Source: Promethearchaeati archaeon (GTDB lineage Archaea > Asgardarchaeota > Heimdallarchaeia > Heimdallarchaeales > Heimdallarchaeaceae). From it: DNA of 64,000 nucleotides. The stretch covers positions 14,916 to 78,915 of the forward strand of contig JABLTJ010000013.1 of assembly GCA_013166775.1 (NCBI GenBank), given 5' to 3'. The position numbers and the translations under genes were made by a program. The notes beneath the pieces were generated by a model that saw only the letters and a list, made by a program, of their open reading frames with translations, did no database searches and was not told where the DNA came from. Shown in pieces: positions 10,870 through 27,840 of the stretch. Every line of letters begins with the position of its first letter. Position 1 is the stretch's first letter.

Positions 10870-13800
10870 GTGTGGATATTGTATAAGAACTCAATTGAGG
10901 TTATAGGCGCTCAAGAGAACAATTTACGTAATATCTCAGTTGAGATTCCACATGATAAGTTAATTGTTATTTCGGGCATCTCTGGAAGTGGAAAGAGTTC
11001 ACTTGCTTTTGATACAATTTATCTCGAAGCACAGAGAAGATATATGGAAACTTTATCAGCTTATGCAAGGCAATTTATAGGTAATTTTGACAGACCGCAA
11101 GTTGAGCATATTGATGGTTTACGACCAACAATTTCTATTGATCAGAAAACTATATCGAGGAATCCAAGAAGTACAGTTGGTACCCTCACTGAGATTTATG
11201 ATTACATGAGAGTACTTTTTGCAAGAGTAGGAATACCTCATTGTCCAGATTGTAAAATTAGGATTGAAGCACAACCTTCAGATCAAGTAATTGAACAGAT
11301 ATTTGCATCTTTTGAAGGACAAAGGATCAAAATAGTTGCTCCAATTTTCGAGAAGAGGAAAGGTGAGTATAGAAAGGAATTAGCTCAATGGAAAGAAGAT
11401 GGTTATGTCAGATTAATAGTTGATGGTAAAGAAGTGAACTTAGATGATGAAGAAGTTCAATTAGAGAGATATGTTGCTCATGATTTAGAAATTATTGTTG
11501 ACAGGAATCGATGTGAAAGAAAGAATGAGCCTTTGATTCTTGATAGTGTCAACCTAGCACTCGAGCTCTCAAAAGGTAGGATTAAGATAATTGGAGAGAA
11601 AGAAGAAAGAGTATACTCAACAAAACTAGTCTGTCCAGAGTGCGGATTAGCTGTAAATGAATTCAATCCTAGAGACTTCTCGCACAATACAGCTGTTGGT
11701 GCTTGTAAGAGATGTAAAGGACTAGGACAAATTGCTGAGATATCTCCTCAAAAGTTCATAGTTAATCATGATCTTTCAATCGCTGATGGTGCCATTGCGA
11801 CAATGACGAAGAACAAAAAACACATCACATATGCTTCTATAGGTTTGAAAAATATCAATGTAATTGTCCAAGAACACGGATATGATATTAACACACCAAT
11901 AAAGGATTTAACTGAAGATCAACTCGATAAACTACTTTATGGAACAGGTAGACAAGAATATCACTTGACATGGAACTGGGATAGTCAAGCAGCTAAATGG
12001 AGTGGGAAGGGTGAGTGGACCACTAGATGGAGAGGATTAATCCCAGCAACAATGGAAGCTTACTACAGACTTACGTCAGAACATAGGAAGCAAATATTAG
12101 AAGAGCTCATGGAACAAACAAAATGCCCTGATTGTAAGGGAATGAGACTCAAGCCCGAGAGTTTAGCTGTTTTGTTCAATGGGAAAAATATCTCTGAACT
12201 CAATAGATTAGAAATTGATGAGTGTTTAAAATTCTTCGAGGGAGTTAAGCTTACTAAAGAAGAGGAGATAATAGGGAAACCTCTACTAAAAGAAATTAAA
12301 AATAGATTATCATTCTTGTTGAAAGTAGGATTACATTATCTAACAATGAACAGAGCTGCGAGTGAGTTGAGCGGAGGAGAAGCTCAAAGAACAAGATTAG
12401 CAACTCAAATAGGTTCAAAGCTACAAGGAGTAAATTATGTCTTAGATGAGCCTTCAATAGGATTAGCTAATAGAGACAACCAAAAGCTGTTGAGTTCTCT
12501 GAAAACTCTCAGAGATGGAGGGAATACAGTCATAGTTGTTGAACATGATGAAGATACTCTTCGTTCAGCTGATCTGCTGTTAGATTTAGGTCCAGGAGCA
12601 GGAGATGATGGTGGAGAAGTACTATTCCTCATGGATCCAAAGGAATTATCTGAAAAAAATTCAAAGAATTCTATCACTGCAAAATATCTATTGGGATTAG
12701 ATGAGATTGAGATACCTAAGAAAAGGAGAACAAGTAAAAAATTCCTTACTCTCAAAGGTGCATCTCATAATAACTTAAAGCAGATAGATGTAAGCATCCC
12801 TTTAGGAACATTCACATGTGTTACTGGAGTTTCAGGAAGTGGTAAGTCTTCTTTAGTTGCAGATACACTTTATCCAATTCTAGTAAATAAACTTCATAAT
12901 GGAAAACAAAAACCAGGTCGATACAAGAGTATAGAAGGCTCAGAGAACATTGACAAAGTTGTCGTAATTGATCAATCACCTATAGGTAGAACGTCAAGAT
13001 CTAATCCTGCAACCTATACAAAAGTAATGGATCATATTAGAGATTTGTTTGCAACTATTCCAACAGCTAAGATTAGAGGGTATTCCAAAACTAGATTCAG
13101 TTTTAATACAAAATTAGGTAGATGTGAAGCGTGTAAAGGGCATGGTTATAATAAGATAGAAATGACCCTTCTTCCCGACGTTGAAGTTGAATGTGAAATT
13201 TGCAAAAGCAAAAGATATGATGATGAGACTCTGAAAATCAAATATCAAGGTCATTCTATAGCTGACATACTTAACATGACTGTAAGTAGAGCAATGGGAG
13301 TGTTTGAAAATATACCTAAAATTCAGCGTATTTTGAAGACTTTAATTGATGTCGGATTGGATTATATACAGCTCGGGCAATCAAGTACAACTATATCTGG
13401 TGGAGAAGCCCAGAGGATAAAACTTAGCAGAGAACTATCAAAGATATCTACAGGTAATACCCTGTATATCCTCGATGAATCGACAACGGGATTAAGTTTT
13501 GAAGATATTAAAAAGCTGTTAAATGTTCTTCAAAGATTGGTTGATAAGGGAAATACAGTATTAATTATAGAGCATAATTTAGATGTCATCAAAGTAGCTG
13601 ATTTTGTCATAGATTTAGGTCCTGATGGCGGAGAAGAAAATGGTGGGTATCTAGTAGATTTAGGTACTCCAGAAGAAATTCTTGAAAATGAGCTTTCATA
13701 TACTGGACAAGCGTTGAAGAAAGTACTAACTGATGATTACATAGAGGAAGAAGTAGAACCTATAAAAATAGAAAAAGAGGATTTAGATCCATCAAAATAT

Positions 13801-16629
13801 CTGTATGTGAGAGGAGCAACAAAGAATAATCTCAAAAGTATAAATTTAGACATTCCAAAAGAAAAACTTGTTGTAATCACAGGACCTAGCGGTTCAGGTA
13901 AAAGCTCTTTAGCTATAGATACTCTTTTTGCAGAAGGGCAAAGAAGGTTTGTAGAATCATTAAGTAGTTATGCACGGCAGTTTCTTACAAAAGCTGAAAG
14001 AGCTGATGTTGATGATATAATTGGTTTGACACCCTCAATAGCTATAGATCAGCATTCTATTTCTAAGAATCCAAGATCAATTGTTGCAACTACTACAGAA
14101 ATTTATGATTATCTCCGACTTCTTTATGCAAAAGTGGGTATACCTCATTGTCCAGTATGCAATATTGTTTTAAAAAATAGAACGTCGGATGAAATAGCTA
14201 AATTAGTACTAAAGGAATATGAATCTGAAAACATAATTATCGCATCTTCTTTATCAAATGGCGAAGAAGTGAATATTAAAGAAACAATCAAGGAAATTCA
14301 AAAACAAGGATATAATAGAATTGTAATAGATGGGAAAGACTATCTAGTAGATGAACAGATAAAAGTAAAAAAATCTTCCTCATTATCTGTAGTAATTGAT
14401 AGAATAGAAGTGAATAAAGAAAACATATCTAGGACAGCTGAATCAATAGAAGCTGCAGTAAGTGTTGGCAAAGGGAGAGTTGAGATCTATTATAATGGAG
14501 AGAGAAGTATTTATTCAATAAATGCTGAATGTATAGATCATGAATATGAAGCTCCATCTGAAATCCATCCAAGACTTTTCAGCTTTAATCACTATTCAGG
14601 AGCATGCTCAAATTGCACAGGGTTGGGAACAATAAGAAAATTTGATATAAGAAAGATAGTCAAGAATTGGGATAAATCGATAAGTCAAGGCGCTATAGGT
14701 CCATATTCTTCTCAAAGAATGTCTAATCCTAACTCTTGGAGAAGAGCAATGCTTGATTCTGTAGCTAAACATTTCGATTTCACAATGGATACACCAATGA
14801 AAGATTTAACTCCTCAACAACTGGATGGTTTATTTTACGGCTCAAAAGGTAAAGATGTATCAATTAGAATCATTCGAGAAAGAGAAAAATCTTCTTCAGA
14901 ATATACTAGAAGTGGACCATGGGAAGGACTCATTCAAAGATGGGTTACTTGGATGACCACTGAAACTGAATCACGATACATTAGTCAAAGAAAAGAACAG
15001 ATGCATCAATATTATAGCGAGTATAAATGCACAGATTGTAATGGACGAAAATTAAAAACAGAAGTTCTTGCGATAACAGTAGGAGATAAATCGATAAACG
15101 ATCTTTCTACCTATGCAGTTGATGATTTTCTTGACTTCCTTAATACTTTGAAGCTTAATAAAAGAAGAGCAAAGATAGCGGATAGGATTATAGTTGAGTT
15201 AAAGAAAAGAGCTGAATATCTAACTGATGTGGGTTTGAGTTATCTTACTCTAGATAGACGTTCAAGCACTTTATCTAATGGAGAAGCCCAAAGAATAAGA
15301 CTCGCTTCACAGATTGGGAGTGGACTTATAGGTGTCACTTATGTCCTAGATGAACCAACAATAGGTCTACACCCAAGAGATATAGATAAGCTGCTTACAA
15401 CATTGAAGAGACTAAGAGATAATGGAAATCATGTTATCGTTGTTGAGCATGATGACATCATAATTAAAGAATCAGATCACATGATTGAACTTGGCCCACT
15501 AGGTGGAGATCAAGGGGGGGATGTAGTTGCTGAAGGGAATACTACTAAACTTCTACAGCGAGAAGATTCTTTGACTGCAAGCTATCTTTCTGGTTCAAAG
15601 AAAATTAAAACACCTAAGAATCGAAGGAAAGCGGAATCTTCTATTGAATTAAAAGGAGCATCTCAAAACAATTTGAAACAAATAGATGTTGAATTCGGAA
15701 AAGGAATATTTACTGCAGTAACTGGTGTCAGTGGGGCAGGTAAATCGTCTCTTGTAATTGACACACTTCAGAAAGGACTTGAAAAGAATATTCAAGGCAA
15801 AAGAACAGAAGTTGGTAAATATAAGTCACTTACAAATTTTGAAGGTATAAACAAAGTAATAGTCGTTGATCAATCCTCTTTGAGTAAATCAAGAAGGTCA
15901 AATCCATCTACGTATTTAGGAGTACAAGATAATATAAGAGATTTCTTTGCTCTTTTACCAGAATCAAAAGCTAGAGGTTTCACACCAGGTCATTTCAGTT
16001 TCAACACATACAAAGGTCAATGTAATGAGTGTCGAGGATTAGGACATAAAAGAATAGAGTTGCTCTTTCTTTCAGATGTTTGGGTTTTATGCCCGAGTTG
16101 TAAAGGGAAGAAATACAAAAAACCTATTCTAACAGCAAGATATAGAAAAAAATCTATTGCTGATATTTTAGAGATGACTATAGAGGAAGCATGTGAACTA
16201 TTTTCGAACATAGAAAATATACGTAGACCTCTTCAATTAGCAGTAGATGTAGGGCTAGGATATCTACGAATGGGACAACCTACAACTACAATAAGTGGAG
16301 GGGAAGCAGAAAGGTTGAAAATAGCTAGAGAATTGTCAAAGAAAACACATGATAAAAGTATCTATTTATTGGATGAACCTTCACAAGGATTACACTTCTA
16401 CGATATTGAAAAACTTGTTAATATTCTGCATCGTTTAGCAGATGAAGGAAACTCAATTGTTGTTATTGATCATAATATGGACATAATAAAGAACGCAGAT
16501 AGGATTATAGATTTAGGTCCTGAAGGTGGGACTAGAAATGGTGGATATTTAGTAGCTAAAGGAACACCTGAGGAGATTATCAATCAACAGGAAGGGTATA
16601 CATGGGAGTATCTTAAGCAAGCTTCCTAG
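10870..16629 (+). CDS. uvrA: excinuclease ABC subunit A, tandem-duplicated (two complete UvrA modules in one 1919-aa chain)
   Basis: Four Walker A motifs (GISGSGKSS, GVSGSGKSS, GPSGSGKSS, GVSGAGKSS); IDQ..NPRS and FSFN-type motifs and CxxC zinc clusters repeated in both halves. Confidence 0.95.
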   Translation: MWILYKNSIEVIGAQENNLRNISVEIPHDKLIVISGISGSGKSSLAFDTIYLEAQRRYMETLSAYARQFIGNFDRPQVEHIDGLRPTISIDQKTISRNPRSTVGTLTEIYDYMRVLFARVGIPHCPDCKIRIEAQPSDQVIEQIFASFEGQRIKIVAPIFEKRKGEYRKELAQWKEDGYVRLIVDGKEVNLDDEEVQLERYVAHDLEIIVDRNRCERKNEPLILDSVNLALELSKGRIKIIGEKEERVYSTKLVCPECGLAVNEFNPRDFSHNTAVGACKRCKGLGQIAEISPQKFIVNHDLSIADGAIATMTKNKKHITYASIGLKNINVIVQEHGYDINTPIKDLTEDQLDKLLYGTGRQEYHLTWNWDSQAAKWSGKGEWTTRWRGLIPATMEAYYRLTSEHRKQILEELMEQTKCPDCKGMRLKPESLAVLFNGKNISELNRLEIDECLKFFEGVKLTKEEEIIGKPLLKEIKNRLSFLLKVGLHYLTMNRAASELSGGEAQRTRLATQIGSKLQGVNYVLDEPSIGLANRDNQKLLSSLKTLRDGGNTVIVVEHDEDTLRSADLLLDLGPGAGDDGGEVLFLMDPKELSEKNSKNSITAKYLLGLDEIEIPKKRRTSKKFLTLKGASHNNLKQIDVSIPLGTFTCVTGVSGSGKSSLVADTLYPILVNKLHNGKQKPGRYKSIEGSENIDKVVVIDQSPIGRTSRSNPATYTKVMDHIRDLFATIPTAKIRGYSKTRFSFNTKLGRCEACKGHGYNKIEMTLLPDVEVECEICKSKRYDDETLKIKYQGHSIADILNMTVSRAMGVFENIPKIQRILKTLIDVGLDYIQLGQSSTTISGGEAQRIKLSRELSKISTGNTLYILDESTTGLSFEDIKKLLNVLQRLVDKGNTVLIIEHNLDVIKVADFVIDLGPDGGEENGGYLVDLGTPEEILENELSYTGQALKKVLTDDYIEEEVEPIKIEKEDLDPSKYLYVRGATKNNLKSINLDIPKEKLVVITGPSGSGKSSLAIDTLFAEGQRRFVESLSSYARQFLTKAERADVDDIIGLTPSIAIDQHSISKNPRSIVATTTEIYDYLRLLYAKVGIPHCPVCNIVLKNRTSDEIAKLVLKEYESENIIIASSLSNGEEVNIKETIKEIQKQGYNRIVIDGKDYLVDEQIKVKKSSSLSVVIDRIEVNKENISRTAESIEAAVSVGKGRVEIYYNGERSIYSINAECIDHEYEAPSEIHPRLFSFNHYSGACSNCTGLGTIRKFDIRKIVKNWDKSISQGAIGPYSSQRMSNPNSWRRAMLDSVAKHFDFTMDTPMKDLTPQQLDGLFYGSKGKDVSIRIIREREKSSSEYTRSGPWEGLIQRWVTWMTTETESRYISQRKEQMHQYYSEYKCTDCNGRKLKTEVLAITVGDKSINDLSTYAVDDFLDFLNTLKLNKRRAKIADRIIVELKKRAEYLTDVGLSYLTLDRRSSTLSNGEAQRIRLASQIGSGLIGVTYVLDEPTIGLHPRDIDKLLTTLKRLRDNGNHVIVVEHDDIIIKESDHMIELGPLGGDQGGDVVAEGNTTKLLQREDSLTASYLSGSKKIKTPKNRRKAESSIELKGASQNNLKQIDVEFGKGIFTAVTGVSGAGKSSLVIDTLQKGLEKNIQGKRTEVGKYKSLTNFEGINKVIVVDQSSLSKSRRSNPSTYLGVQDNIRDFFALLPESKARGFTPGHFSFNTYKGQCNECRGLGHKRIELLFLSDVWVLCPSCKGKKYKKPILTARYRKKSIADILEMTIEEACELFSNIENIRRPLQLAVDVGLGYLRMGQPTTTISGGEAERLKIARELSKKTHDKSIYLLDEPSQGLHFYDIEKLVNILHRLADEGNSIVVIDHNMDIIKNADRIIDLGPEGGTRNGGYLVAKGTPEEIINQQEGYTWEYLKQAS

Positions 16630-16784: not shown

Positions 16785-18776
16785 ATGGATCGCAAAAAAA
16801 AAAATAGAGTTAAATGCTCTTTTCTGATTATTTTATTCTTCAATTTCAGTTATTCAACAAGCTTTAATTCTAAAAGTTTTAACTATCCTCAACTTGTTCT
16901 AAAAACTACAGGAGGGGGGATTTTACCAGACTATGCAATGTTTATTACACAGAATTTAAGAGATATTGGAATATATGTTAAAATCCAAATTGAAGAATGG
17001 TCGGTTCTTTATGGTAAGGAGCTTTCCCCATGCAATTATGATTTAGCAATTATTAAGATGAATTTTAATCAATTTTATCCCCATCCCTCTATATATTTCT
17101 CCAATAATGGTTCAAAAAACCTTCTTTTTAAAAATACAGATTTGCCTTATTGGAGGTTTAATGAAGAAATGCTTACTTTGATGAATCAAGTAGATGATGA
17201 TGAAAGACAGCAGATCTATTATGATTGGCAGCAGCAGCTAATGGATAAGATTCTACCTTGTCTTCCTCTTTTCAATTATCAGAAGCAAATTTCAACATGG
17301 TCTACTTTGGAAGGATATAACGTCAATTGGTCTATTTCGAATAATATGCCTTATCTCTCATTTAATGAAACTCATGAGGGACAAGAGAGCACAGATGAAT
17401 TCATATTCAGTGATTCAAGTTTTCAAAATCTTAATCCTTTAATGTATACTGATGATTCAAGTGTGAATTTAGCCAGCTTTCTTACTGAACAAATTATTCA
17501 AATTTCTCCTGAAAATGAGATACTAAAAACTGGATTAATTTATGATTGGGAAGAGGTGAACGAGAGCTATTATCGTTTCTTTGTAAGAGATAATATCTAT
17601 TGGAATCCTTCATACAACATAACAGAAAGAACTGAAAACTCACCTCCTTTAAGTATTCTCACTACTCCACTGATGAGTGGTTTAAAAGGTGATATTAGCA
17701 ATGGAACTAATCAAAAAGTAACTGCAAAAGATGTTGCTTTTACACTTCTTTCTTTAGCCACACAAAATTCAAGTAAATATTACGATCAATATAATTGGAT
17801 TAGAAGAATAGATATGAATTCAACAAATGATTTAATTTTTTCAATTTTGGTTGATTCCAATCCTCAAACGAAAGAACTAGATTTGTTTCAAGGTATTCTT
17901 TTCAATTTCCTTTTCATGTTGAATGTTCCTTGTTTACCAGAATTTTTCTTAAATTCTAGTGATGAAACAATATTTTATACTTCTGGTAGCATACCAGTGA
18001 AAGGACTTTACAATGCAAAGAATTCAGTTCAGTGGAACACATATAGTTGTTCAGCTTTTGGCTGTGGGAAGTATATGTTGGATTATACTCATAGAAATGT
18101 AGAGACTCTTCTTCAAGCAAATCCTAATTGGTTCGGAATAGGTCCTCGAGAGGGTAATAATCAGTCTCTATCTATAGAAAAGGTAAAAATAAGAGATATT
18201 TCAGATGATTTCACTTCTTTAGAGGAATTTAAAGCTGGAAAGCTCGATTTGATGGATGTCACTTCTTTTAAATCTGAAAGTGTAAAAATGCAAATTGACG
18301 ATAGATTCGAAATTCATGACACCCTCTCAAGTGATATGACATGTCTTGTTTTCAATTTAGATAGACCTTTTATTGGAGGTGCTGACAATTATGTTTTTAT
18401 GGATACCCCTGGTAAAGAAGAATATACAAAAGGTGTTGCTATTCGTAAAGCAATCTGTTATGCGATAGATCGAGAAGAGATGAATGAGATTTTACATGAT
18501 GGAGATTACATAATTTCTCATAATCCTATCCCACCATTTTTCTCATTCTACTATTATGACAATATTATCAAGTACTATAGAGATTTAGATGCTGCTTACG
18601 AATGGTTGAGGGCTTCTGGACGTGGTGTGTATCTTACTATATATTATCCCGAAGATCATAGTGATGCTTTCTTTATTCTAACATGGATTATCGTTGTCGC
18701 TGCTAGTTTACAAGTACTAGTTATAATTTTGAATCGTTTAAGCAAATTAAATAGGAGAAATAAAAAATATGTGTAG
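16785..18776 (+). CDS. family 5 (OppA/DppA-like) solute-binding protein, circularly permuted, C-terminal TM anchor
   Basis: NLNP, DWE...YRFFVRDNIYW, VTAKDVAFT, GCGKY, FKAGKLD, RKAICYAIDREEM and AYEWLRASG motifs. The usual C-terminal segment (QNLRDIGI..EW..YDL..ERQQIY..Q..LP.LPL) is at the N-terminus. Confidence 0.85.
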   Translation: MDRKKKNRVKCSFLIILFFNFSYSTSFNSKSFNYPQLVLKTTGGGILPDYAMFITQNLRDIGIYVKIQIEEWSVLYGKELSPCNYDLAIIKMNFNQFYPHPSIYFSNNGSKNLLFKNTDLPYWRFNEEMLTLMNQVDDDERQQIYYDWQQQLMDKILPCLPLFNYQKQISTWSTLEGYNVNWSISNNMPYLSFNETHEGQESTDEFIFSDSSFQNLNPLMYTDDSSVNLASFLTEQIIQISPENEILKTGLIYDWEEVNESYYRFFVRDNIYWNPSYNITERTENSPPLSILTTPLMSGLKGDISNGTNQKVTAKDVAFTLLSLATQNSSKYYDQYNWIRRIDMNSTNDLIFSILVDSNPQTKELDLFQGILFNFLFMLNVPCLPEFFLNSSDETIFYTSGSIPVKGLYNAKNSVQWNTYSCSAFGCGKYMLDYTHRNVETLLQANPNWFGIGPREGNNQSLSIEKVKIRDISDDFTSLEEFKAGKLDLMDVTSFKSESVKMQIDDRFEIHDTLSSDMTCLVFNLDRPFIGGADNYVFMDTPGKEEYTKGVAIRKAICYAIDREEMNEILHDGDYIISHNPIPPFFSFYYYDNIIKYYRDLDAAYEWLRASGRGVYLTIYYPEDHSDAFFILTWIIVVAASLQVLVIILNRLSKLNRRNKKYV

Positions 18777-18859
18777 AATATTACACAAAAATAGTTATCT
18801 TTGTATAAAATATAAGATATTTGAGAAATTTGTAACTAAATGATATAAATGTGGTAAGT

Positions 18860-19357
18860 ATGGATAAGGGAAGAATAAATGAAGTAGGAGAGTTATTGGA
18901 AGTTGCCCCTTCTAATTTAAAAGAATCTAAATTTAAAGTATTAGTAAAACGACTTACTTATCCTCTGGCCCAGATTGCATTTTTTATATTTTCTATTATT
19001 TCAGGAATTTTACTTGGATATTGGGAAAGTCAAATACAAATAGGTTACCCTTTTAATCAAATCACAAGAATTTATAGAGCAGGGATTCCGACTCTCTTGA
19101 TTATCCATAGTGGAAATACGCTATTTTCGATAAAAAATCGCAAGAAATATCGTATTTCAAATTTCCTAACAGGATCTATAGTTATTATTAATCTGATACT
19201 GTCTGCGATTAGTTTCTTTTTTATCTATAAATTTATGGATGCAAATCTAGGTCTTAGTGCTTCAGTTCGTTATGGTACTTTCCATAAGAATATAGATAAA
19301 ATAATTATTTCAAAGATTTCTTCAACTATGAAAGAGGTGTATTATTTAGAAGTGTGA
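18860..19357 (+). CDS. 3-TM membrane protein, paralog 1; putative rSAM substrate (C-terminal RYG)
   Basis: N-terminus MDKGRINEVGELLEVAPSNLKESK, GYP loop, tail SVRYGTFHK. ATG at 18860 chosen by paralog alignment (ORF track starts at GTG 18851). Confidence 0.7.
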   Translation: MDKGRINEVGELLEVAPSNLKESKFKVLVKRLTYPLAQIAFFIFSIISGILLGYWESQIQIGYPFNQITRIYRAGIPTLLIIHSGNTLFSIKNRKKYRISNFLTGSIVIINLILSAISFFFIYKFMDANLGLSASVRYGTFHKNIDKIIISKISSTMKEVYYLEV

Positions 19358-19363
19358 TTTAAT

Positions 19364-19819
19364 ATGAACGATGAGAAAATAAACGAAGTTGGAAACTTGT
19401 TGGAAATAGATTCTTCAGATATTCAAGAATCAAAACAAAAAAAAATCTGGAAAAAACTAATTTTCCCTGTTGTTCAAATTTCAACTATCGTCCTTTCAGC
19501 AATCTTAGGTGCTTTAATGGGATACTGGGAAAATAACAGATCATCAGGTTATCCTGCTTCATGGCTTTACCCAAGGATTTTCTTTTTAGGTCCGATAGCG
19601 CTTTTTGGTTTCATTGTAGGAAACATATCAATATCCTCAAAGAACTATAAAAAAATTGGATTAAGAGGTGTTTATGCAGCTATTATTATTTTTATGAATA
19701 TATTGATCTCTGTAGCAAGCTTAGCTTTTACTTATATGGCAATTCGAACTACACCACCAGTGATTCTAGGTAGTTATGTAATGTATGGTACTTATAAAAA
19801 GCCAAAATATGGAAAATAA
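19364..19819 (+). CDS. 3-TM membrane protein, paralog 2; putative rSAM substrate (C-terminal MYG and KYG)
   Basis: MNDEKINEVGNLLEIDSSDIQESK...GYP...PPVILGSYVMYGTYKKPKYGK. Confidence 0.75.
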   Translation: MNDEKINEVGNLLEIDSSDIQESKQKKIWKKLIFPVVQISTIVLSAILGALMGYWENNRSSGYPASWLYPRIFFLGPIALFGFIVGNISISSKNYKKIGLRGVYAAIIIFMNILISVASLAFTYMAIRTTPPVILGSYVMYGTYKKPKYGK

Positions 19820-19829
19820 GTGGTTGAAT

Positions 19830-20297
19830 TTGAATAAAGAGAAATTAGATGAAACTGGAAAAGTGTTGAATGTTGATTCTTCAGATATTCAAAAATCAAA
19901 ATCAAAACAAATCTTGAAGAAACTTATTTTTCCTCTTGTTCAGGTTTCAACTATCATTCTTTCAGCAACCTCAGGAGCTTTACTGGGATATTTGGAGAAA
20001 AAAGAACCATCAGGTTATCCATATGCATGGGATTTCCCGAAGATTTACTTTTTTGGCCCAATGGCACTTCTAGGTTTTAGTACAGGGAATATATTAATAT
20101 CTTCAAAAAACTATAAGAAAACCGGATTAAGAGGTACTTCTGCTAGCATTATTGTTTTTCTAAGTATAGTTATCTCAGTAGCAAGCTTAGTTTTTATTTA
20201 TATGGCTGTTCAAAATCCACCACCTCCTCTTCAAGGATACGTTCCGCCATTTAATGTTTCAATAGATTATGATACCTTTAGAAAGAGAAATTTATAA
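19830..20297 (+). CDS. 3-TM membrane protein, paralog 3 (C-terminal DYD variant)
   Basis: Likely TTG start at 19830: MNKEKLDETGKVLNVDSSDIQKSK...GYP...PPPPLQGYVPPFNVSIDYDTFRK. Extensive DNA identity to paralog 2, e.g. gattcttcagatattcaa. Confidence 0.7.
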   Translation: MNKEKLDETGKVLNVDSSDIQKSKSKQILKKLIFPLVQVSTIILSATSGALLGYLEKKEPSGYPYAWDFPKIYFFGPMALLGFSTGNILISSKNYKKTGLRGTSASIIVFLSIVISVASLVFIYMAVQNPPPPLQGYVPPFNVSIDYDTFRKRNL

Positions 20298-20307
20298 TGT
20301 GATTAAT

Positions 20308-21372
20308 ATGAAATATAATCTTGATTGCGCAGTTTGGGAATTAACTCTTGAATGTAATCTTAAGTGTAAACATTGTGGTTCTAGTGCAGGAAAGGCTAGA
20401 AAAAACGAGTTAACTACTCAAGAATGCTTCAATCTTTGCGAAGATTTATCAGAAGTTGGTTGTAGAGAAGTTAGTTTAATGGGTGGGGAACCTTTTGTAA
20501 GAGAAGATTGGAATGAAATAGCCTGGTGTGTTAAAGATTTAGGGATGGATTTAGCTTTTGTAAGTAATGGAATACTCATTCCTCAAGTAATAGAGAAGCT
20601 TAATCTATTAGAACCTGTAGTAGTTGGAGTTTCTCTTGATGGTGTAAAAGAAACACATGATTATATTAGAAGAAAAGGATCTTATGACGCAGCTCATCAA
20701 GCTATAGAACTACTCTTGGAAAATGATATTCAAACGACTGTAATAACCACAATAAGTAAAACAAATTTCAAAGAATTATTGGAATTGAAGAAACTCATTT
20801 ATGGAAAAGGAATAAACTGGCAAATTCAAGTATGTATGCCATTTGGATATTTTGATCCATCTTTAGTAATTAGTCAAGAAGAATATTATGCTTCTGCTAT
20901 GTTTATTGTTTCAGAACGGATAAAAAACAAATTCAAAGACATGCCTGTGGTAGGAGCACATTGTTATGGTTATTTCTCTCATTTACTTCCAAGAAACAAT
21001 CGATGGGATGGTTGTACTGCAGGAAGATCCACAGTTGGTTTAACTTCAGAAGGTTCAGTAGTTGGGTGTTTATCAATGGGGAATAACCAATTTATTGAAG
21101 GTAATGTGAGAGATAGAAGTTTCAAAGAGATCTGGGAAGATCCTAATTCTTTTGCTTATAATAGAAATTTCAAACGAGATGATTTCGGTGAAAATTGCAT
21201 TGATTGTTTTTACGGAGAAAAATGTAAAGGTGGATGTAACTCAACATCTTATCACCTTACAAAGAAATTTCATAACACACCTTTATGTTTAAGAAAAATA
21301 GAAGAAAAGTTGTTTGATGTGAAGATTCCTAAGAAAGAAAGATCCAATGTCCAAGAAGTGAAATCATTATGA
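20308..21372 (+). CDS. radical SAM/SPASM-domain peptide/protein maturase, splicease (PlpX)-like
   Basis: CNLKCKHC (CxxxCxxC), GGEP, VSLDG..HD, WQIQ, GYF. SPASM cysteines: WDGCTAG...GC...GNVR...CIDC.....CKGGC...C. Probable ATG at 20308. Confidence 0.85.
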   Translation: MKYNLDCAVWELTLECNLKCKHCGSSAGKARKNELTTQECFNLCEDLSEVGCREVSLMGGEPFVREDWNEIAWCVKDLGMDLAFVSNGILIPQVIEKLNLLEPVVVGVSLDGVKETHDYIRRKGSYDAAHQAIELLLENDIQTTVITTISKTNFKELLELKKLIYGKGINWQIQVCMPFGYFDPSLVISQEEYYASAMFIVSERIKNKFKDMPVVGAHCYGYFSHLLPRNNRWDGCTAGRSTVGLTSEGSVVGCLSMGNNQFIEGNVRDRSFKEIWEDPNSFAYNRNFKRDDFGENCIDCFYGEKCKGGCNSTSYHLTKKFHNTPLCLRKIEEKLFDVKIPKKERSNVQEVKSL

Positions 21373-22655
21373 TAAAATTGAATCTAGGTTGTGGTATTTT
21401 TTACAAACCAGGATATATAAACATTGATCTTGTTGAAGATAAAATTGCTGATCAGATTGCTGACGTTACCAACCTTCCTTATGAGGAAAATAGTGTAGAT
21501 CTAATAGAAGCATCTCATATAATTGAACATTTTGATGTAAATCAAGTTCCTTTTGTTCTTTCTGAATGGTACAGAATTTTGAAACCAGGTGGGAAACTAG
21601 AGATTGAAATACCAAATTTGTTAAAATCTGTAATTAAACTGAAATTAAGTAAGTACAGAAAACAATTATTAACTTTGAAATTTCTGTTTGGAGTAGATTA
21701 TAGAGGGAATATTCACAAGATAGGTTTTACAAGATTATTCTTAAAAAAATCTCTTTCCAGAACAGGTTTCAAAAAAATTAGAAGAAAGAAACAAAGAAGC
21801 TTCAAAGAAGAAAGAGGTATGAGATACCAGGCAAGCAAACCATTAGATGCTGATTTATCAAAAAAGAAACATTTTATTACTACTTTCCGTTCAGAAATCA
21901 ACTCTAATTTTGAAATAAAAGAGACTTTATTCTATGAAGTTTTAGAGAACAACTGTTTCTTATCGCTTTTTAATATTCTACCTGAAAATATTCAGAAATT
22001 TTTCAACACATTTAGGATAACTAATTTCTGTGCTTCTCTATCAATAATTCATCCTAAATTATCTAAAATCTTTCTCGAGATATTTCCTGAAAATCAGACA
22101 AATGAAATCAACAAAGAAGTATTAGACTATCTTGATGAAATTAAATTTCAATCTCTACTTCTAACTGATTGGATAAAGTGGAGAAAAGATCAATTTAATT
22201 TTCCCATTTCTATAACCAAATTCTTCAATCACTGGACATGGAAAATTAATCAAATGTTAAACAAAAAAACTGATTTTAAGAAAATGTTGAGCTACTTAAC
22301 GTCTTTAGAACAAAACTCTAATGAATTTTTCTCAATTGAGATTATTAATATTCAATCACTCAGACTAGCTAATCAAGGAATAAGAGCTTTTGAAAAGGAG
22401 ATTTTTGTAGAAGCTAAAAAGCTTCTTGAAGAGAGTCTTAGAATGAATCCTTCAAATATTGAAGCAAATCTAAATCTTGCACGTCTTCTTAGAAAACTAG
22501 ATCACAATCCAAATCAAATATCTAACTTATATGAATTTGTTCTGTCTGATTTATCTAATAGGAGAATTAAAAGGAAAATAAGGAAAGAGTATCAATTGAT
22601 TCTCCTTAACAAGGAGAAAAAAGAAGAATTGAGTCCAATTCAATTGAGAAGTTAA
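21369..22655 (+). CDS. class I SAM-dependent methyltransferase with C-terminal TPR-like helical region
   Basis: KLNLGCG, YINID, SHIIEH, RILKPGG; TPR-like AKKLLEESLRMNPSNIEANLNLARL; ATGA overlap with the rSAM gene. Confidence 0.82.
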   Translation: MIKLNLGCGIFYKPGYINIDLVEDKIADQIADVTNLPYEENSVDLIEASHIIEHFDVNQVPFVLSEWYRILKPGGKLEIEIPNLLKSVIKLKLSKYRKQLLTLKFLFGVDYRGNIHKIGFTRLFLKKSLSRTGFKKIRRKKQRSFKEERGMRYQASKPLDADLSKKKHFITTFRSEINSNFEIKETLFYEVLENNCFLSLFNILPENIQKFFNTFRITNFCASLSIIHPKLSKIFLEIFPENQTNEINKEVLDYLDEIKFQSLLLTDWIKWRKDQFNFPISITKFFNHWTWKINQMLNKKTDFKKMLSYLTSLEQNSNEFFSIEIINIQSLRLANQGIRAFEKEIFVEAKKLLEESLRMNPSNIEANLNLARLLRKLDHNPNQISNLYEFVLSDLSNRRIKRKIRKEYQLILLNKEKKEELSPIQLRS

Positions 22656-22710
22656 AATTTATTTTTTAAATCACAAAAGATATCAATGAGTAAGGAGAAT
22701 TTTAAAAAGA

Positions 22711-23958
22711 ATGACTATAAAGAACTTTGGAGTTACGAAAGAATCAGCTGAAAAACTAGAAACTGAAGATGATTTAGCAGTTTTTCGCGATAAATTTTAC
22801 ATACCTGAAAACACAATTTACATGAACGGTAATTCTTTAGGATTACTACCTAAGAAGGGAGAAAAAACTCTCTTACGAGTTTTAGAAGAATGGAAAACTG
22901 GTGGAGTCCAAGGTTGGGTAAATATTGAGAAACCTTGGTTTTTTTTTGCTGAGAAATTGGGTGAAAAAGCTGCTTTTCTAGTTGGAGCTAAATCTTCTGA
23001 AGTTATCGCAACAGGTACTACTACAATTAACATTCATTCATTGATCAGTACATTTTATGAACCTGAAGGGAAGAAAACTAAGATTCTAGCTGATGTATTG
23101 AATTTTCCTACAGATATTTATGCCCTTCAAAGTCAAGTTAAACTAAAAGGACTAAATCCTGAAGAACACTTGGTTCTAGTTAAAAGCAAAGATGGAAGAT
23201 TCTTAGATGAGCAAACTATTGTCGATGCCATGACTGATGAAATAGCTATTATTCTGTTGCCATCAGCTCTGTTTAGAAGTGGTCAACTCTTAGATATGAA
23301 ATACTTAACTGAAGAAGCTCATAAAAGAGGAATTTTAATCGGATGGGACTGTTCTCATTCAGTTGGAGTTGTTCCCCATTATTTTGATGAATGGGGAGTT
23401 GATTTCGCAGTCTGGTGTAGTTACAAATATCTCAATGCGGGTCCAGGTGCAAGTGCATTTCTTTATATCAACGAGAAACACTTTACCAAAGAAGCTGCAT
23501 TATCAGGTTGGTTTGGTTATGTAAAAGAGAAACAATTTGAGTTGAACTTACATTTTGAACAAGCGAAAAATGCAGGAGGGTGGCAGATATCATCCCCATC
23601 AATTTTAGGTTCAGCAGCACTTGAAGGAGCATTAGATCTTATATTAGAAGCAGGAATAGATGAAATTAGAGAAAAATCATTGAAGATGACTTCCTATATG
23701 ATTTTCCTTGTTGATGAATTGCTTTCTGGAGAGCCATATAACTTCTCTATTGGAACACCGAGAGAAAAGGAGAGAAGAGGAGGTCATGTAGCTTTAGAGC
23801 ACAAAGAAGCATACAAAATACATGAAGAATTACTAAAGAAAAATGTAGTACATGATTTCCGTCCTCCGAACATTGTTCGTATCACTCCATCAGCTCTCTA
23901 CAATACTTATACAGAGATATGGGAAGTAATTTCCATCATAAAGAGTCTGTTTGATTGA
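22711..23958 (+). CDS. kynU: kynureninase
   Basis: IYMNGNSLGL, FPTDIY, DCSHSVG, WCSYKYLNAGPG (PLP lysine), GWFG, RGGHV, DFRPP. Confidence 0.95.
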   Translation: MTIKNFGVTKESAEKLETEDDLAVFRDKFYIPENTIYMNGNSLGLLPKKGEKTLLRVLEEWKTGGVQGWVNIEKPWFFFAEKLGEKAAFLVGAKSSEVIATGTTTINIHSLISTFYEPEGKKTKILADVLNFPTDIYALQSQVKLKGLNPEEHLVLVKSKDGRFLDEQTIVDAMTDEIAIILLPSALFRSGQLLDMKYLTEEAHKRGILIGWDCSHSVGVVPHYFDEWGVDFAVWCSYKYLNAGPGASAFLYINEKHFTKEAALSGWFGYVKEKQFELNLHFEQAKNAGGWQISSPSILGSAALEGALDLILEAGIDEIREKSLKMTSYMIFLVDELLSGEPYNFSIGTPREKERRGGHVALEHKEAYKIHEELLKKNVVHDFRPPNIVRITPSALYNTYTEIWEVISIIKSLFD

Positions 23959-25848: not shown

Positions 25849-27840
25849 CTATTTCTTCTTCTTTACTATAACTGAAATTACTACAATAGCTATCATAATT
25901 ACATAAGACTCTAAAGCTGATTTATTTGGATTATCTGGATTCAGTGGATCATAACTATTTTCTACCTCTTCTCCGTCAGATATACCATCACCATCAGTAT
26001 CATTGTTGTTTGGATCTGTGAGATGGATTAAAACCTCATCACCATCAGTTAAACCATCAGCATCTGAATCTTTTTCTGTTGGATCAGTTTCATAATCATT
26101 AACTTCGTCTCCATCTAAGAGTCCGTCTAAATCAGTATCATTGTTGTTTGGATTAGTAAAATAGACTTGCACCTCTTCACCGTCTTTCAATCCGTCTTCA
26201 TCTGTGTCATCATTCTTTGGGTCTGTTTCATATTCATTAACTTCTTCGCCATCTTTTAATCCATCACTATCAGTATCACTTTTCATTGGATGTGTATTAA
26301 GAGCATATTCCTCAATGTTAGTTAAATCATCGTCATCTGGATCTTCAGCAGAATCATCATTCCATGGATCAAGGTTCTTTTCAACTTCCCATTTCGGGTC
26401 CATTCCATCGTCATCTGTGTCTTCCAAAGGATATAAATCTGAAGTTCCTGCAGTTCCTCCGATTGGATAATCTCCTGTACCTGACCAATCATCCCAATAA
26501 TTTCCTTTCTCTGTACTTGTATTATACCATATATTATCTAGTCCATCATCTTTTACCTGTGTTCCACCATTGTTATTTTCAATGAAGATATTTCTATAGA
26601 TTTTATTGTTGTCTGAAGTATCTCCCCAACCGGCAAGGTTAATCCCATGCTCAGTACAGTATTTGATTACATTCTGATAAATTTCACAATAATTTGATTC
26701 AGCAAAATACATTCCATATTGAGTACTGGTTTCAATAAAATTATTTCTTATTATTATATACTCAGACATCGGAAGATACATTCCATATTCCCAATTATCT
26801 TTACATGTATTGTTATCTATAATACAGTAAGTAGACAAATCAACATAGATTCCTATATTTTGTCCTTGGCAAAGATTATTTCGGATAATAACATTACTAG
26901 AGAATTCATAAACATATATCCCAAAATCTCCATCTTCATCATATTGATTGTTTTCTATGATAACATTTGTTGATTTATGCACAGTAATAGTTCTATCTTC
27001 TAGTTTATTATGAGCAATATTTACATTATTAGAACCCGTTACTTCAATACCACAATAATTATTTTCAATAATCACATCATTACAATAGAAAAGAAATATT
27101 CCCTTAGAAGGAGATTTCATCTCTTGATTTATTATTTGAATATCACTACAATCAATTAGAAAAATCTGACCATAATCTGAAGCTGAAAAAGTTAGACTTG
27201 AATTACCAACAAACCAAGCTATAGGTTTTCCATTTAGAGTATTATCGTTGATTTGCATTGTCGAAACTTCAGATAAATCAACATCATACATGATACTAAT
27301 TCCACCTTGAGTAAATTCATTATCTTCTATAACTACAAAGGGTGAATACTCAATATGTATCCCACCCCATTCATTGTTTTCCAGTGTATTATTAGCAATT
27401 ATTGCATAAGATGCACTATACAAAATGATTCCTCCGTGTGTATCCCTTATTGTGTTTTCCAGAATCTGGACAGTATTGAGTCCTACTGATGAAATATAAA
27501 TTGCAATTGTAAAGCCTTCTATCAAACAATTTTGAATTACAAAATTTTTAGTAGTAGATGTTATCTCTATTGCAGTACCTGAATCAGCAGAGATATGATA
27601 ATCCTCTATTCTGTAGGGATTACCTGGAGATCCATCTCCTGGGAATCCATATGATATGAAATCAGCATCGCTATCAATTTCAATCGGCAAATAAATTGTA
27701 TATGTAAGATTCGAGGAATTATTTTCTTCCAGATAGGTTGCTAGATTTGTTCGTGATAAAAGTGATAGATATAACATGAATAACAAAAAAACCAAAAAAA
27801 TCGATAGTACTTTTTTTCCATTATTTCTTTTATTTTTCAT
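25849..27840 (-). CDS. surface protein: right-handed parallel beta-helix (NosD-like) + Ca-binding DxDxDG repeats + C-terminal TM anchor
   Basis: Signal peptide, GDGSPGNPYRIE, I.NN/GI repeats, GNYWDDW, DTDxDGLxDGxE repeats, TM plus KKKK. Confidence 0.85.
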   Translation of the reverse strand: MKNKRNNGKKVLSIFLVFLLFMLYLSLLSRTNLATYLEENNSSNLTYTIYLPIEIDSDADFISYGFPGDGSPGNPYRIEDYHISADSGTAIEITSTTKNFVIQNCLIEGFTIAIYISSVGLNTVQILENTIRDTHGGIILYSASYAIIANNTLENNEWGGIHIEYSPFVVIEDNEFTQGGISIMYDVDLSEVSTMQINDNTLNGKPIAWFVGNSSLTFSASDYGQIFLIDCSDIQIINQEMKSPSKGIFLFYCNDVIIENNYCGIEVTGSNNVNIAHNKLEDRTITVHKSTNVIIENNQYDEDGDFGIYVYEFSSNVIIRNNLCQGQNIGIYVDLSTYCIIDNNTCKDNWEYGMYLPMSEYIIIRNNFIETSTQYGMYFAESNYCEIYQNVIKYCTEHGINLAGWGDTSDNNKIYRNIFIENNNGGTQVKDDGLDNIWYNTSTEKGNYWDDWSGTGDYPIGGTAGTSDLYPLEDTDDDGMDPKWEVEKNLDPWNDDSAEDPDDDDLTNIEEYALNTHPMKSDTDSDGLKDGEEVNEYETDPKNDDTDEDGLKDGEEVQVYFTNPNNNDTDLDGLLDGDEVNDYETDPTEKDSDADGLTDGDEVLIHLTDPNNNDTDGDGISDGEEVENSYDPLNPDNPNKSALESYVIMIAIVVISVIVKKKK
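25945..26421 (-). repeat. intragenic ~69-bp (23-aa) tandem repeats encoding bacterial TSP3-like Ca-binding units
   Basis: DTDSDGLKDGEEVNEYETDPKND / DTDEDGLKDGEEVQVYFTNPNNN / DTDLDGLLDGDEVNDYETDPTEK / DSDADGLTDGDEVLIHLTDPNNN / DTDGDGISDGEEV, plus two degenerate units upstream. Boundaries approximate. Confidence 0.85.

Follow-up and report, generated by a model that had tools for sequence, protein, structure and literature searches.

What does a radical S-adenosylmethionine (SAM) enzyme do in an Asgard archaeon when it is encoded beside small membrane proteins that share a tyrosine in their tails? The question is raised by a 64,000-nucleotide stretch of DNA (hereafter the window) from a Promethearchaeati archaeon of the Heimdallarchaeaceae (assembly GCA_013166775.1, contig JABLTJ010000013.1, positions 14,916 to 78,915 of the forward strand). 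Positions 18860-22655 of the window hold five tightly packed open reading frames (ORFs), all on the + strand, which encode three paralogous small proteins, a radical SAM (rSAM)/SPASM enzyme, and a methyltransferase. We find that this cassette is one copy of a real, conserved, and widespread three-component protein-maturation system. The rSAM enzyme very probably takes the co-encoded small proteins as its substrates, and their tail tyrosine is probably its target. As for the chemistry, tyramine excision is our best single guess, a tentative one drawn from homology and the architecture of the site.

Composition and distribution of the cassette

How is the cassette built? Its components in the window, with the region that precedes them, are as follows.

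18777..18859, + strand: putative promoter region, AT-rich, with a TATA-like tttgtataaaatataag ~45-55 nt 5' of the paralog 1 start codon, as read from the sequence
18860..19357, + strand: paralog 1, 165 amino acids (aa), with the conserved N-terminal helix and membrane helices; Y63-P64 at 19046-19051; Tyr138 in SVR-Y-G-T-F, codon 19271-19273
19364..19819, + strand: paralog 2, 151 aa; Y63-P64 at 19550-19555; Tyr141 in YVM-Y-G-T-Y, codon 19784-19786; a later KYG
19809..20297, + strand: paralog 3, 162 aa from ATG 19809 or 155 aa from TTG 19830; Y-P at 20016-20021; SID-Y-D-T-F, Tyr codon 20268-20270
20308..21372, + strand: rSAM/SPASM enzyme, 354 aa from MKYNL; CxxxCxxC (C16/C20/C23), SPASM cysteines, WQ.Q signature
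21369..22655, + strand: class I SAM methyltransferase, 428 aa; methyltransferase domain at ~residues 1-160, all-helical/TPR part at ~165-412

A preliminary description of this locus had seen an operon-like run with 6-10 bp gaps and an ATGA overlap, and the ORFs bear this out: the gaps measure 6, 10 (taking paralog 3 from its TTG start), and 10 bp, and an ATGA overlap joins the rSAM gene to the methyltransferase gene. The TTG at 19830 is the start of paralog 3 that aligns with its paralogs. The description's division into three paralogs, an rSAM/SPASM enzyme, and a methyltransferase-TPR protein also agrees with Pfam, which gave Radical_SAM (81.5 bits) and SPASM (34.8 bits) for the enzyme and Methyltransf_11 with a weak TPR match for the last gene. 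The AT-rich leader at 18777..18859 is likely the promoter of the five-gene unit; a scan for sigma-70 promoters and terminators stayed at chance level, with no terminator inside 18600-22900.

How far does the cassette extend beyond this archaeon? Relatives are encoded in at least 582 species-representative genomes. The hosts include Heimdall-, Hod-, Prometh-, Hel-, Hermod-, and Thorarchaeota, Thermoplasmata (Thermoplasmatota), metagenome-assembled genomes (MAGs) of the DPANN-type Undinarchaeota and Nanohalarchaeota, Elusimicrobia, and one Patescibacteria MAG. The cultured Promethearchaeum syntrophicum MK-D1 is also among them (NZ_CP042905.2, ~1.574-1.585 Mb); its locus (L025) holds the rSAM enzyme, the methyltransferase, and three small proteins (L025:7435-8849) ending in YNVY, YDVY, and YGVY. 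A locus generally comprises an rSAM enzyme, a methyltransferase, and one to five small proteins. Among 85 loci that we fetched, all 85 contain the rSAM gene, 74 contain a methyltransferase homolog (many loci are cut by contig ends), and 45 contain small proteins with a tail tyrosine. The methyltransferase is thus a constant partner of the rSAM enzyme. Gene order and strand differ among loci, which indicates that the linkage is selected rather than inherited as synteny.

Only these three families recur in the fetched loci, which lack any conserved protease, transporter/exporter, or RiPP recognition element (RRE)-like gene. The preliminary description had noted that no separate PlpY/RRE gene was visible, and across the 85 loci none recurs. 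By analogy, the missing gene should be no problem for a splicease reading, because some known splicease systems are binary and have no Y protein (PMC11414181).

The cassette is an accessory trait. A survey of the phylum recovered the enzyme in 65 of 300 sampled genomes (~22%), 20 of 90 high-quality genomes, and 16 of 70 genera, and a first draw of relatives from the window's genus yielded it in 10 of 25 genomes, the window's own counted. The window genome, searched for orphan paralogs of the small proteins, yielded none beyond the three cassette copies. No description of the cassette came up in literature searches on archaeal spliceotides, Asgard archaea included; the splicease census of Scott et al. 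2022 (Chem) lay outside their coverage. That census is said in one paper to span bacterial and archaeal genomes (PMC11626197), whereas a review mentions 189 bacterial genera (PMC10849128).

The methyltransferase itself gives few clues to its role. Its AlphaFold2 model is confident (predicted local distance difference test [pLDDT] 92.9), and a fold search with it returned only generic class I methyltransferases, with no hint of a substrate; a sequence search of solved structures gave no match.

Family placement of the radical SAM enzyme

To which known enzymes is the rSAM protein related? No NCBIfam or Pfam model names it. In NCBIfam, it scores highest with TIGR03913 (199 bits; GDL-motif peptide maturase) and TIGR04103 (195 bits; nif11-class maturase 3, the PlpX family), followed by TIGR04133 (146 bits), MftC (140), AhbD (131), NirJ (129), and PqqE (81). 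The preliminary description had proposed scoring the enzyme against TIGR04103, TIGR03913, and TIGR04133, and the first two lead clearly over the third. The same ranking was recovered in 18 of 18 orthologs tested, from several phyla; in these 18, C16, C20, C23, and the C-terminal cysteines are invariant. Against annotated plasmids, tblastn likewise ranked GDL-type maturases (178-192 bits) and nif11 maturase 3 (181 bits) above MftC (at most 131 bits), and a sequence search of solved structures found only the distant SPASM enzymes SkfB and PqqE. All of the enzyme motifs quoted in the preliminary description (AVWELTLECNLKCKHCGSSAGKAR, WQIQ, GYF, WDGCTAG, GCLS, and GNVRDR) are in the rSAM translation.

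A small maximum-likelihood tree of 34 rows, in which annotated family members came from plasmid records and experimentally verified spliceases were not among the rows, gave a consistent picture. The window family is monophyletic (support 97/99) and is joined by an enzyme from Agathobacter (88/89). Together they are sister to a group of TIGR04103, TIGR03913, and enzymes from Aureibacter and Tropicibacter. The whole clade is well supported (99/98) and leaves out MftC, NirJ, TIGR04347, TIGR04053, and two other peptide maturases. Ten positions, including W171, Q172, and Q174 of the WQ.Q signature, are shared by the window family with at least six of seven splicease-clade rows and with at most one of seven outgroup rows; seven of the ten are present in all seven splicease-clade rows. 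Because the scores of the window enzyme fall far below the curated family cut-offs, it is best placed as a sister family rather than a member. On this sequence evidence, we regard the enzyme as a new sister family of splicease-type enzymes.

Several other identities were considered and set aside. The preliminary description had named the heme and heme d1 rSAM enzymes (AhbC/D, NirJ) and PqqE as families whose clustering with the enzyme would refute its splicease reading. AhbD, NirJ, and PqqE score lower than the leading families, and NirJ lies outside the clade, so the reading is not refuted on this count. MftC (TIGR03962) is disfavored by a score below its cut-off (140 vs. 265 bits), by its position outside the clade, by a tyrosine that is never C-terminal in the small proteins, and by the absence of an MftB-like gene. 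No triceptide-type cyclophane enzyme is among the families matched by the window enzyme (E up to 1e-20), so that homology does not favor this identity.

The tail tyrosine of the small membrane proteins

What do the small proteins have in common? The paralogs are 36-56% identical to paralog 2, and NCBIfam and Pfam contain no model for them. AlphaFold2 models paralog 2 (pLDDT 84.5) with a leader helix at residues 3-12 and long helices at 17-58, 72-94, and 102-129, followed by a tail that is disordered from residue 130 (tail pLDDT 48-60). The paralogs had been described as proteins with three transmembrane (TM) helices; the three long helices modeled for paralog 2 agree with this, whereas a crude hydropathy scan detected the middle-helix span in paralog 2 only. 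Taking the model into account, the small proteins are likely 3-TM.

We gathered homologs by an iterative profile search that rested on the leader and membrane parts and not on the tail, which yielded 95 non-redundant proteins from 45 loci. All 95 carry a tyrosine 4-35 residues from the C terminus, and it is never the C-terminal residue itself. The residue before this tyrosine is freely variable (K, L, R, M, D, F, E, Y, or A). The residue after it is G in 56 homologs, S in 20, N in 11, D in 7, and E in 1. The second position after it is V, T, or S in 93 of the 95 (V70, S15, T8, A2), and the third is mostly aromatic or aliphatic (Y40, F28, V12, I8). The resulting pattern, Y-[GSND]-[VST]-[YFVI] within the last 50 residues, occurs in 86 of 95 homologs vs. 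5% of the other ORFs of the same loci and 5% of shuffled tails. The tail motif exceeds chance.

The tails quoted in the preliminary description, SVR-YG-TF, YVM-YG-TY (plus the later KYG), and SID-YD-TF, are exact in the translations. Its claim that the paralogs bear C-terminal XYG motifs fits paralogs 1 and 2, whereas paralog 3 has Y-D. This Y-D is an ordinary variant, as Asp, Asn, and Ser are common there in orthologous loci. Similarly, the expectation that YG would be kept next to orthologs of the enzyme was borne out for the tyrosine, which small neighbors nearly always carry in their tails, but less so for Y-G itself, found in 56 of 95 homologs.

The tail tyrosine is not the only fixed element. 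In a 37-row alignment with a mean column identity of 23%, only three columns are invariant: Y63, P64, and Tyr141. The Y63-P64 pair, absent from the first reading of the locus, sits just after the first membrane helix. The two motifs converge in a second enzyme clade, comprising Thorarchaeota, some Promethearchaeota, and Elusimicrobia, where they form one block, Y-P-x-G-T-x-Y-[GS]-[ST]-[IV]-x-x-x-D-F. Proteins from Asgard archaea to Elusimicrobia also share a conserved helix at the N terminus, K-L-x-E-[IV]-G-x-x-L-x-[IV]-x-x-x-D-[IL]. The tail beyond the last helix has a median length of 28 residues. Forms with a single TM helix or a lipobox suggest that the tail faces outward; in the three-helix forms, segments rich in Lys/Arg occur on either side.

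Some loci depart from the membrane-protein form. In a Helarchaeota locus (JAHPZH010000003.1, L015:5475-5988), the methyltransferase and rSAM genes are separated by three genes for soluble peptides of 46-65 aa. These peptides keep K-[KR]-G-Y-P-[FY] and P-P-x-Y-G-V-Y and have neither the leader helix nor a membrane helix; a separate TPR protein is encoded upstream. Elusimicrobia small proteins (L084:7533-7844 and L092:7996-8346) carry a lipobox, LAAC or LSAC, after the leader helix and end in GPYPGYPCGTRYYTVSxxDF, in which Tyr-Tyr replaces Tyr-Gly.

Proposed reaction and comparison with known systems

How might the cassette act on these proteins? Spliceases excise a tyramine equivalent at X-Y-G (PMC11414181, PMC11626197, PMC9811515), and splicing has been shown at MYG and LYG sites (PMC11626197). 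Binary spliceases need no Y protein, and a leader helix activates the enzyme (PMC11414181). In the scheme that we propose, the rSAM enzyme would act in the cytoplasm on the invariant tail tyrosine (Tyr138, Tyr141, and the tyrosine at codon 20268). It would recognize the substrate, or be activated by it, through the substrate's N-terminal helix, which would take the part of the leader helix in binary splicease systems. At the end of translation, the short tail would still lie within or just beyond the ribosome, so a cytoplasmic enzyme could reach it before insertion, even if the tail is finally outside. The most likely reaction would remove a tyramine equivalent and leave an alpha-keto-beta-amide joining the residues that flank the tyrosine. 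The methyltransferase-TPR protein might then add a second modification or hold the substrate via its helical domain, which is a guess. The product would remain full-length and membrane-anchored, since neither a protease nor an exporter recurs beside the cassette genes. In favor of splicing, the tail tyrosine is invariant, the residue before it is as free as the X of XYG, and the tail is predicted to be disordered.

Several observations weigh against tyramine splicing. The curated cut-offs are unmet (199 vs. 592 bits for TIGR03913 and 195 vs. 725 bits for TIGR04103), and with scores a third or less of these values the chemistry is not transferable by equivalog logic. TIGR04133, whose function is unknown, also falls inside the 99/98 clade, on a long branch. 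In 41% of homologs, S, N, D, or E stands where XYG has its Gly, and at 15 of 45 loci no substrate has a Y-G at all, although the enzymes there look intact; because of these loci, Gly after the tail tyrosine is preferred without being required. The second invariant motif, Y-P, is without counterpart in described spliceotide precursors. In the clade of Thorarchaeota, Promethearchaeota, and Elusimicrobia, it stands six residues before the tail tyrosine, and this juxtaposition suggests that two tyrosines work together. If the tail is outward, a cytoplasmic enzyme must act before insertion. Finally, we know of no obligatory methyltransferase partner in the described splicease systems. The PlpX-type identity given in the preliminary description therefore stands only in part: the top two family scores and the 99/98 clade speak for it, and the sub-cut-off scores and the dispensable Gly against it.

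Could the same enzyme act on the same substrates by another radical chemistry? Given the dispensable Gly, the Y-P motif, its juxtaposition with the tail tyrosine, and a constant methyltransferase not seen in described spliceotide systems, this stays a strong rival, and we consider it a real possibility. The enzyme might form a C-C or C-O crosslink from the tail tyrosine site to the Y-P site, a cyclophane between the tyrosine and the beta-branched Val/Thr two residues on, or an oxidized tyrosine on the way to a protein-derived cofactor, with the methyltransferase capping the product. Y63, P64, and Y141 being the sole invariant columns fits such a reaction, as does the fusion of both motifs in the second clade, and the soluble Helarchaeota peptides retain both motifs without leader or membrane parts. 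The residues that follow the tyrosine, G, S, N, and D, are turn-favoring and would suit a folded-back substrate, and the near-constant V, T, or S at the second position, like the methyltransferase outside known spliceotide logic, points the same way. The related MftC starts at a tyrosine and makes a Val-Tyr C-C bond (PMC10114670). However, family scores and the tree clearly put the window enzyme closer to splicease-type families than to MftC or the crosslinking maturases WgkB, StsB, and DynA; its closest bacterial relative, that of Agathobacter, pairs with an MYGT peptide that has no Y-P; and the spacing from Y-P to the tail tyrosine ranges from 6 to ~80 residues.

A broader formulation, possible but rather doubtful in our view, is that the cassette makes a membrane-tethered product from the two tyrosine motifs, a splicease-related backbone editing of archaeal membrane proteins with a dedicated methyltransferase. 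Such a product could contain an alpha-ketoamide or a new Tyr-Tyr or Tyr-derived structure and could serve as a surface protease trap or a protein-derived cofactor, not as a secreted peptide.

It is unlikely that the small proteins are anchors, partners, or immunity proteins while the rSAM enzyme and the methyltransferase modify a lipid or other small molecule. Archaeal membrane lipids are targets of rSAM enzymes and methyltransferases, the small proteins are mostly membrane-embedded, and a predicted complex of the rSAM enzyme with paralog 2 (both entered as alignments) gave no verdict on pairing. Yet their sole invariant features are two tyrosine motifs in loops and tails, outside the membrane parts; the Helarchaeota versions are soluble and those of Elusimicrobia lipoprotein-like; they occur in one to five copies per locus, like precursor genes; and the nearest relatives of the enzyme are peptide or protein maturases. 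Proteins can be sorted or anchored by short C-terminal motifs that follow a last membrane helix, but a purely structural or sorting role for the tail motif, with only incidental linkage to the enzymes, is highly improbable, given that the linkage persists over several archaeal and bacterial phyla, in different gene orders and on both strands, that the window genome has no copy outside the cassette, and that the data are the opposite of small proteins and rSAM enzymes occurring apart in many genomes.

Do the genes around the cassette belong to it? The flanking genes in the window (solute-binding protein, kynureninase-like enzyme, ATP-binding cassette [ABC] transporter) recur in only 1-3 related loci. 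Directly upstream (16785-18776, +) lies a 663-aa SBP_bac_5 solute-binding protein with a C-terminal membrane anchor, which recurs in one related locus and is probably not part of the cassette. Just downstream of the methyltransferase (22711-23958, +) is a kynureninase-like pyridoxal phosphate enzyme (KYNU_C and Aminotran_5), which is not conserved with the cassette. A protein of 663 aa at 25849-27840 (-) combines right-handed beta-helix repeats with Asp-rich repeats of the calcium-binding type and carries a membrane anchor at its C terminus; five related loci (L016, L017, L018, L047, and L049) have homologs no more than 6 kb from the cassette. Farther upstream (10870-16629, +), a single 1919-aa ORF has two UvrA-like halves.

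Why would the chemistry matter? Tyramine splicing is one of very few routes that place beta-amino acids and reactive ketoamides in ribosomal products, and to our knowledge the demonstrated cases are so far confined to bacterial peptides and a small number of soluble proteins. If it operates here, its range would grow to take in membrane proteins, archaea near the eukaryotic stem, and a relaxed site with G, S, N, or D after the Tyr, a rule that would be useful for protein engineering. If the chemistry is different, the cassette would represent a widespread, unnamed tyrosine modification with a conserved methyltransferase partner. The system is directly testable, with soluble natural substrates in Helarchaeota and a cultured host in P. 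syntrophicum MK-D1.

How does the cassette compare with known systems? Among spliceotide systems, we considered the type I PlpX/PlpY/PlpA and PcpXYA (Pleurocapsa; TIGR04103) and the binary type II RhaX/RhaA, RcsX/RcsA, and RasX/RasA (Rheinheimera). The cassette resembles them in having an rSAM/SPASM enzyme of the same well-supported clade and adjacent multi-copy substrates with a tyrosine site, often of the form x-Y-G-[hydrophobic], in which the residue before the tyrosine varies. Beside a TIGR04103 enzyme in Nostoc, for example, the Nif11 precursor reads ALYGLP. With the binary systems in particular, it shares the absence of a Y/RRE gene and a conserved N-terminal substrate helix (PMC11414181, PMC11626197). 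Unlike spliceotide systems, it combines sub-cut-off scores, a dispensable Gly, an invariant Y-P, mostly integral membrane substrates, a constant methyltransferase-TPR protein, no conserved protease or exporter, and mainly archaeal hosts.

The GDL system, a TIGR03913 maturase with DUF1843 and DUF1842-DUF1843 proteins (Burkholderia, Azospirillum, and Chromobacterium, with a variant in Aureibacter), offers the top-scoring family at 199 bits. Its substrates are also tandem paralogs, some of them full proteins, and its x-Y-G-V matches most archaeal tails: the Burkholderia proteins beside the TIGR03913 enzyme read TPYGVA, AMYGVA, and PMYGVG. However, GDL enzymes have 470-520 aa with extra termini, compared with 354 aa for the window enzyme, and their tyrosine site is N-terminal of a helical GDL domain in soluble substrates, whereas that of the window proteins is in a C-terminal tail. 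On the Aureibacter tunicatorum plasmid pAT1 (L106:2150-2863), three DUF1843 peptides beside a GDL-type rSAM enzyme read LYAAG, MYAAS, and PYGAG. The Tyr-Ala in two of the three implies that relatives of a named family also tolerate residues other than Gly. A class I methyltransferase follows this rSAM gene; we rejected it as a counterpart of the window's, to which it is unrelated in sequence.

TIGR04133 rSAM/SPASM enzymes (Bacteroidota, "radical SAM-associated putative lipoprotein") are the third-best family (146 bits) and belong to the same clade, and their lipoprotein partner recalls the lipobox of the Elusimicrobia small proteins. Unlike the window family, they sit on a long branch, and the partner is a 280-aa lipoprotein without leader helix or tail motif. 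The mycofactocin system MftA/MftB/MftC likewise has a SPASM rSAM enzyme acting on a tyrosine near a peptide C terminus. MftA ends in Gly-Val-Tyr, echoing Y-G-V-Y, and some clusters hold a methyltransferase, MftM (PMC10114670). In contrast to the window enzyme, MftC is outside the clade, with a lower score (140 bits) than the leading families. The MftA tyrosine is the very last residue, as is needed for decarboxylation, whereas 4-35 residues follow it in the window family, and no MftB-, MftD-, or MftE-like genes are present.

The closest bacterial parallel is on an Agathobacter rectalis plasmid (NZ_CP143948.1), where an unannotated 35-aa ORF (L103:2803-2910), MFNLEELSLEFVKISELKTSKNLFGPVMYGTGVRM, with the tail PVMYGTGVRM, lies ~80 bp upstream of an rSAM gene whose product is 37% identical to the window enzyme; a major facilitator superfamily (MFS) transporter follows. 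The VMYGT of this peptide matches the tail of paralog 2, and its start resembles the archaeal leader helix. Judged from its sequence, the cluster looks like a minimal binary spliceotide-type system from a human gut Firmicute. Across the whole clade, the sites follow a single plan: a tyrosine, then a small residue, then a hydrophobic or beta-branched one.

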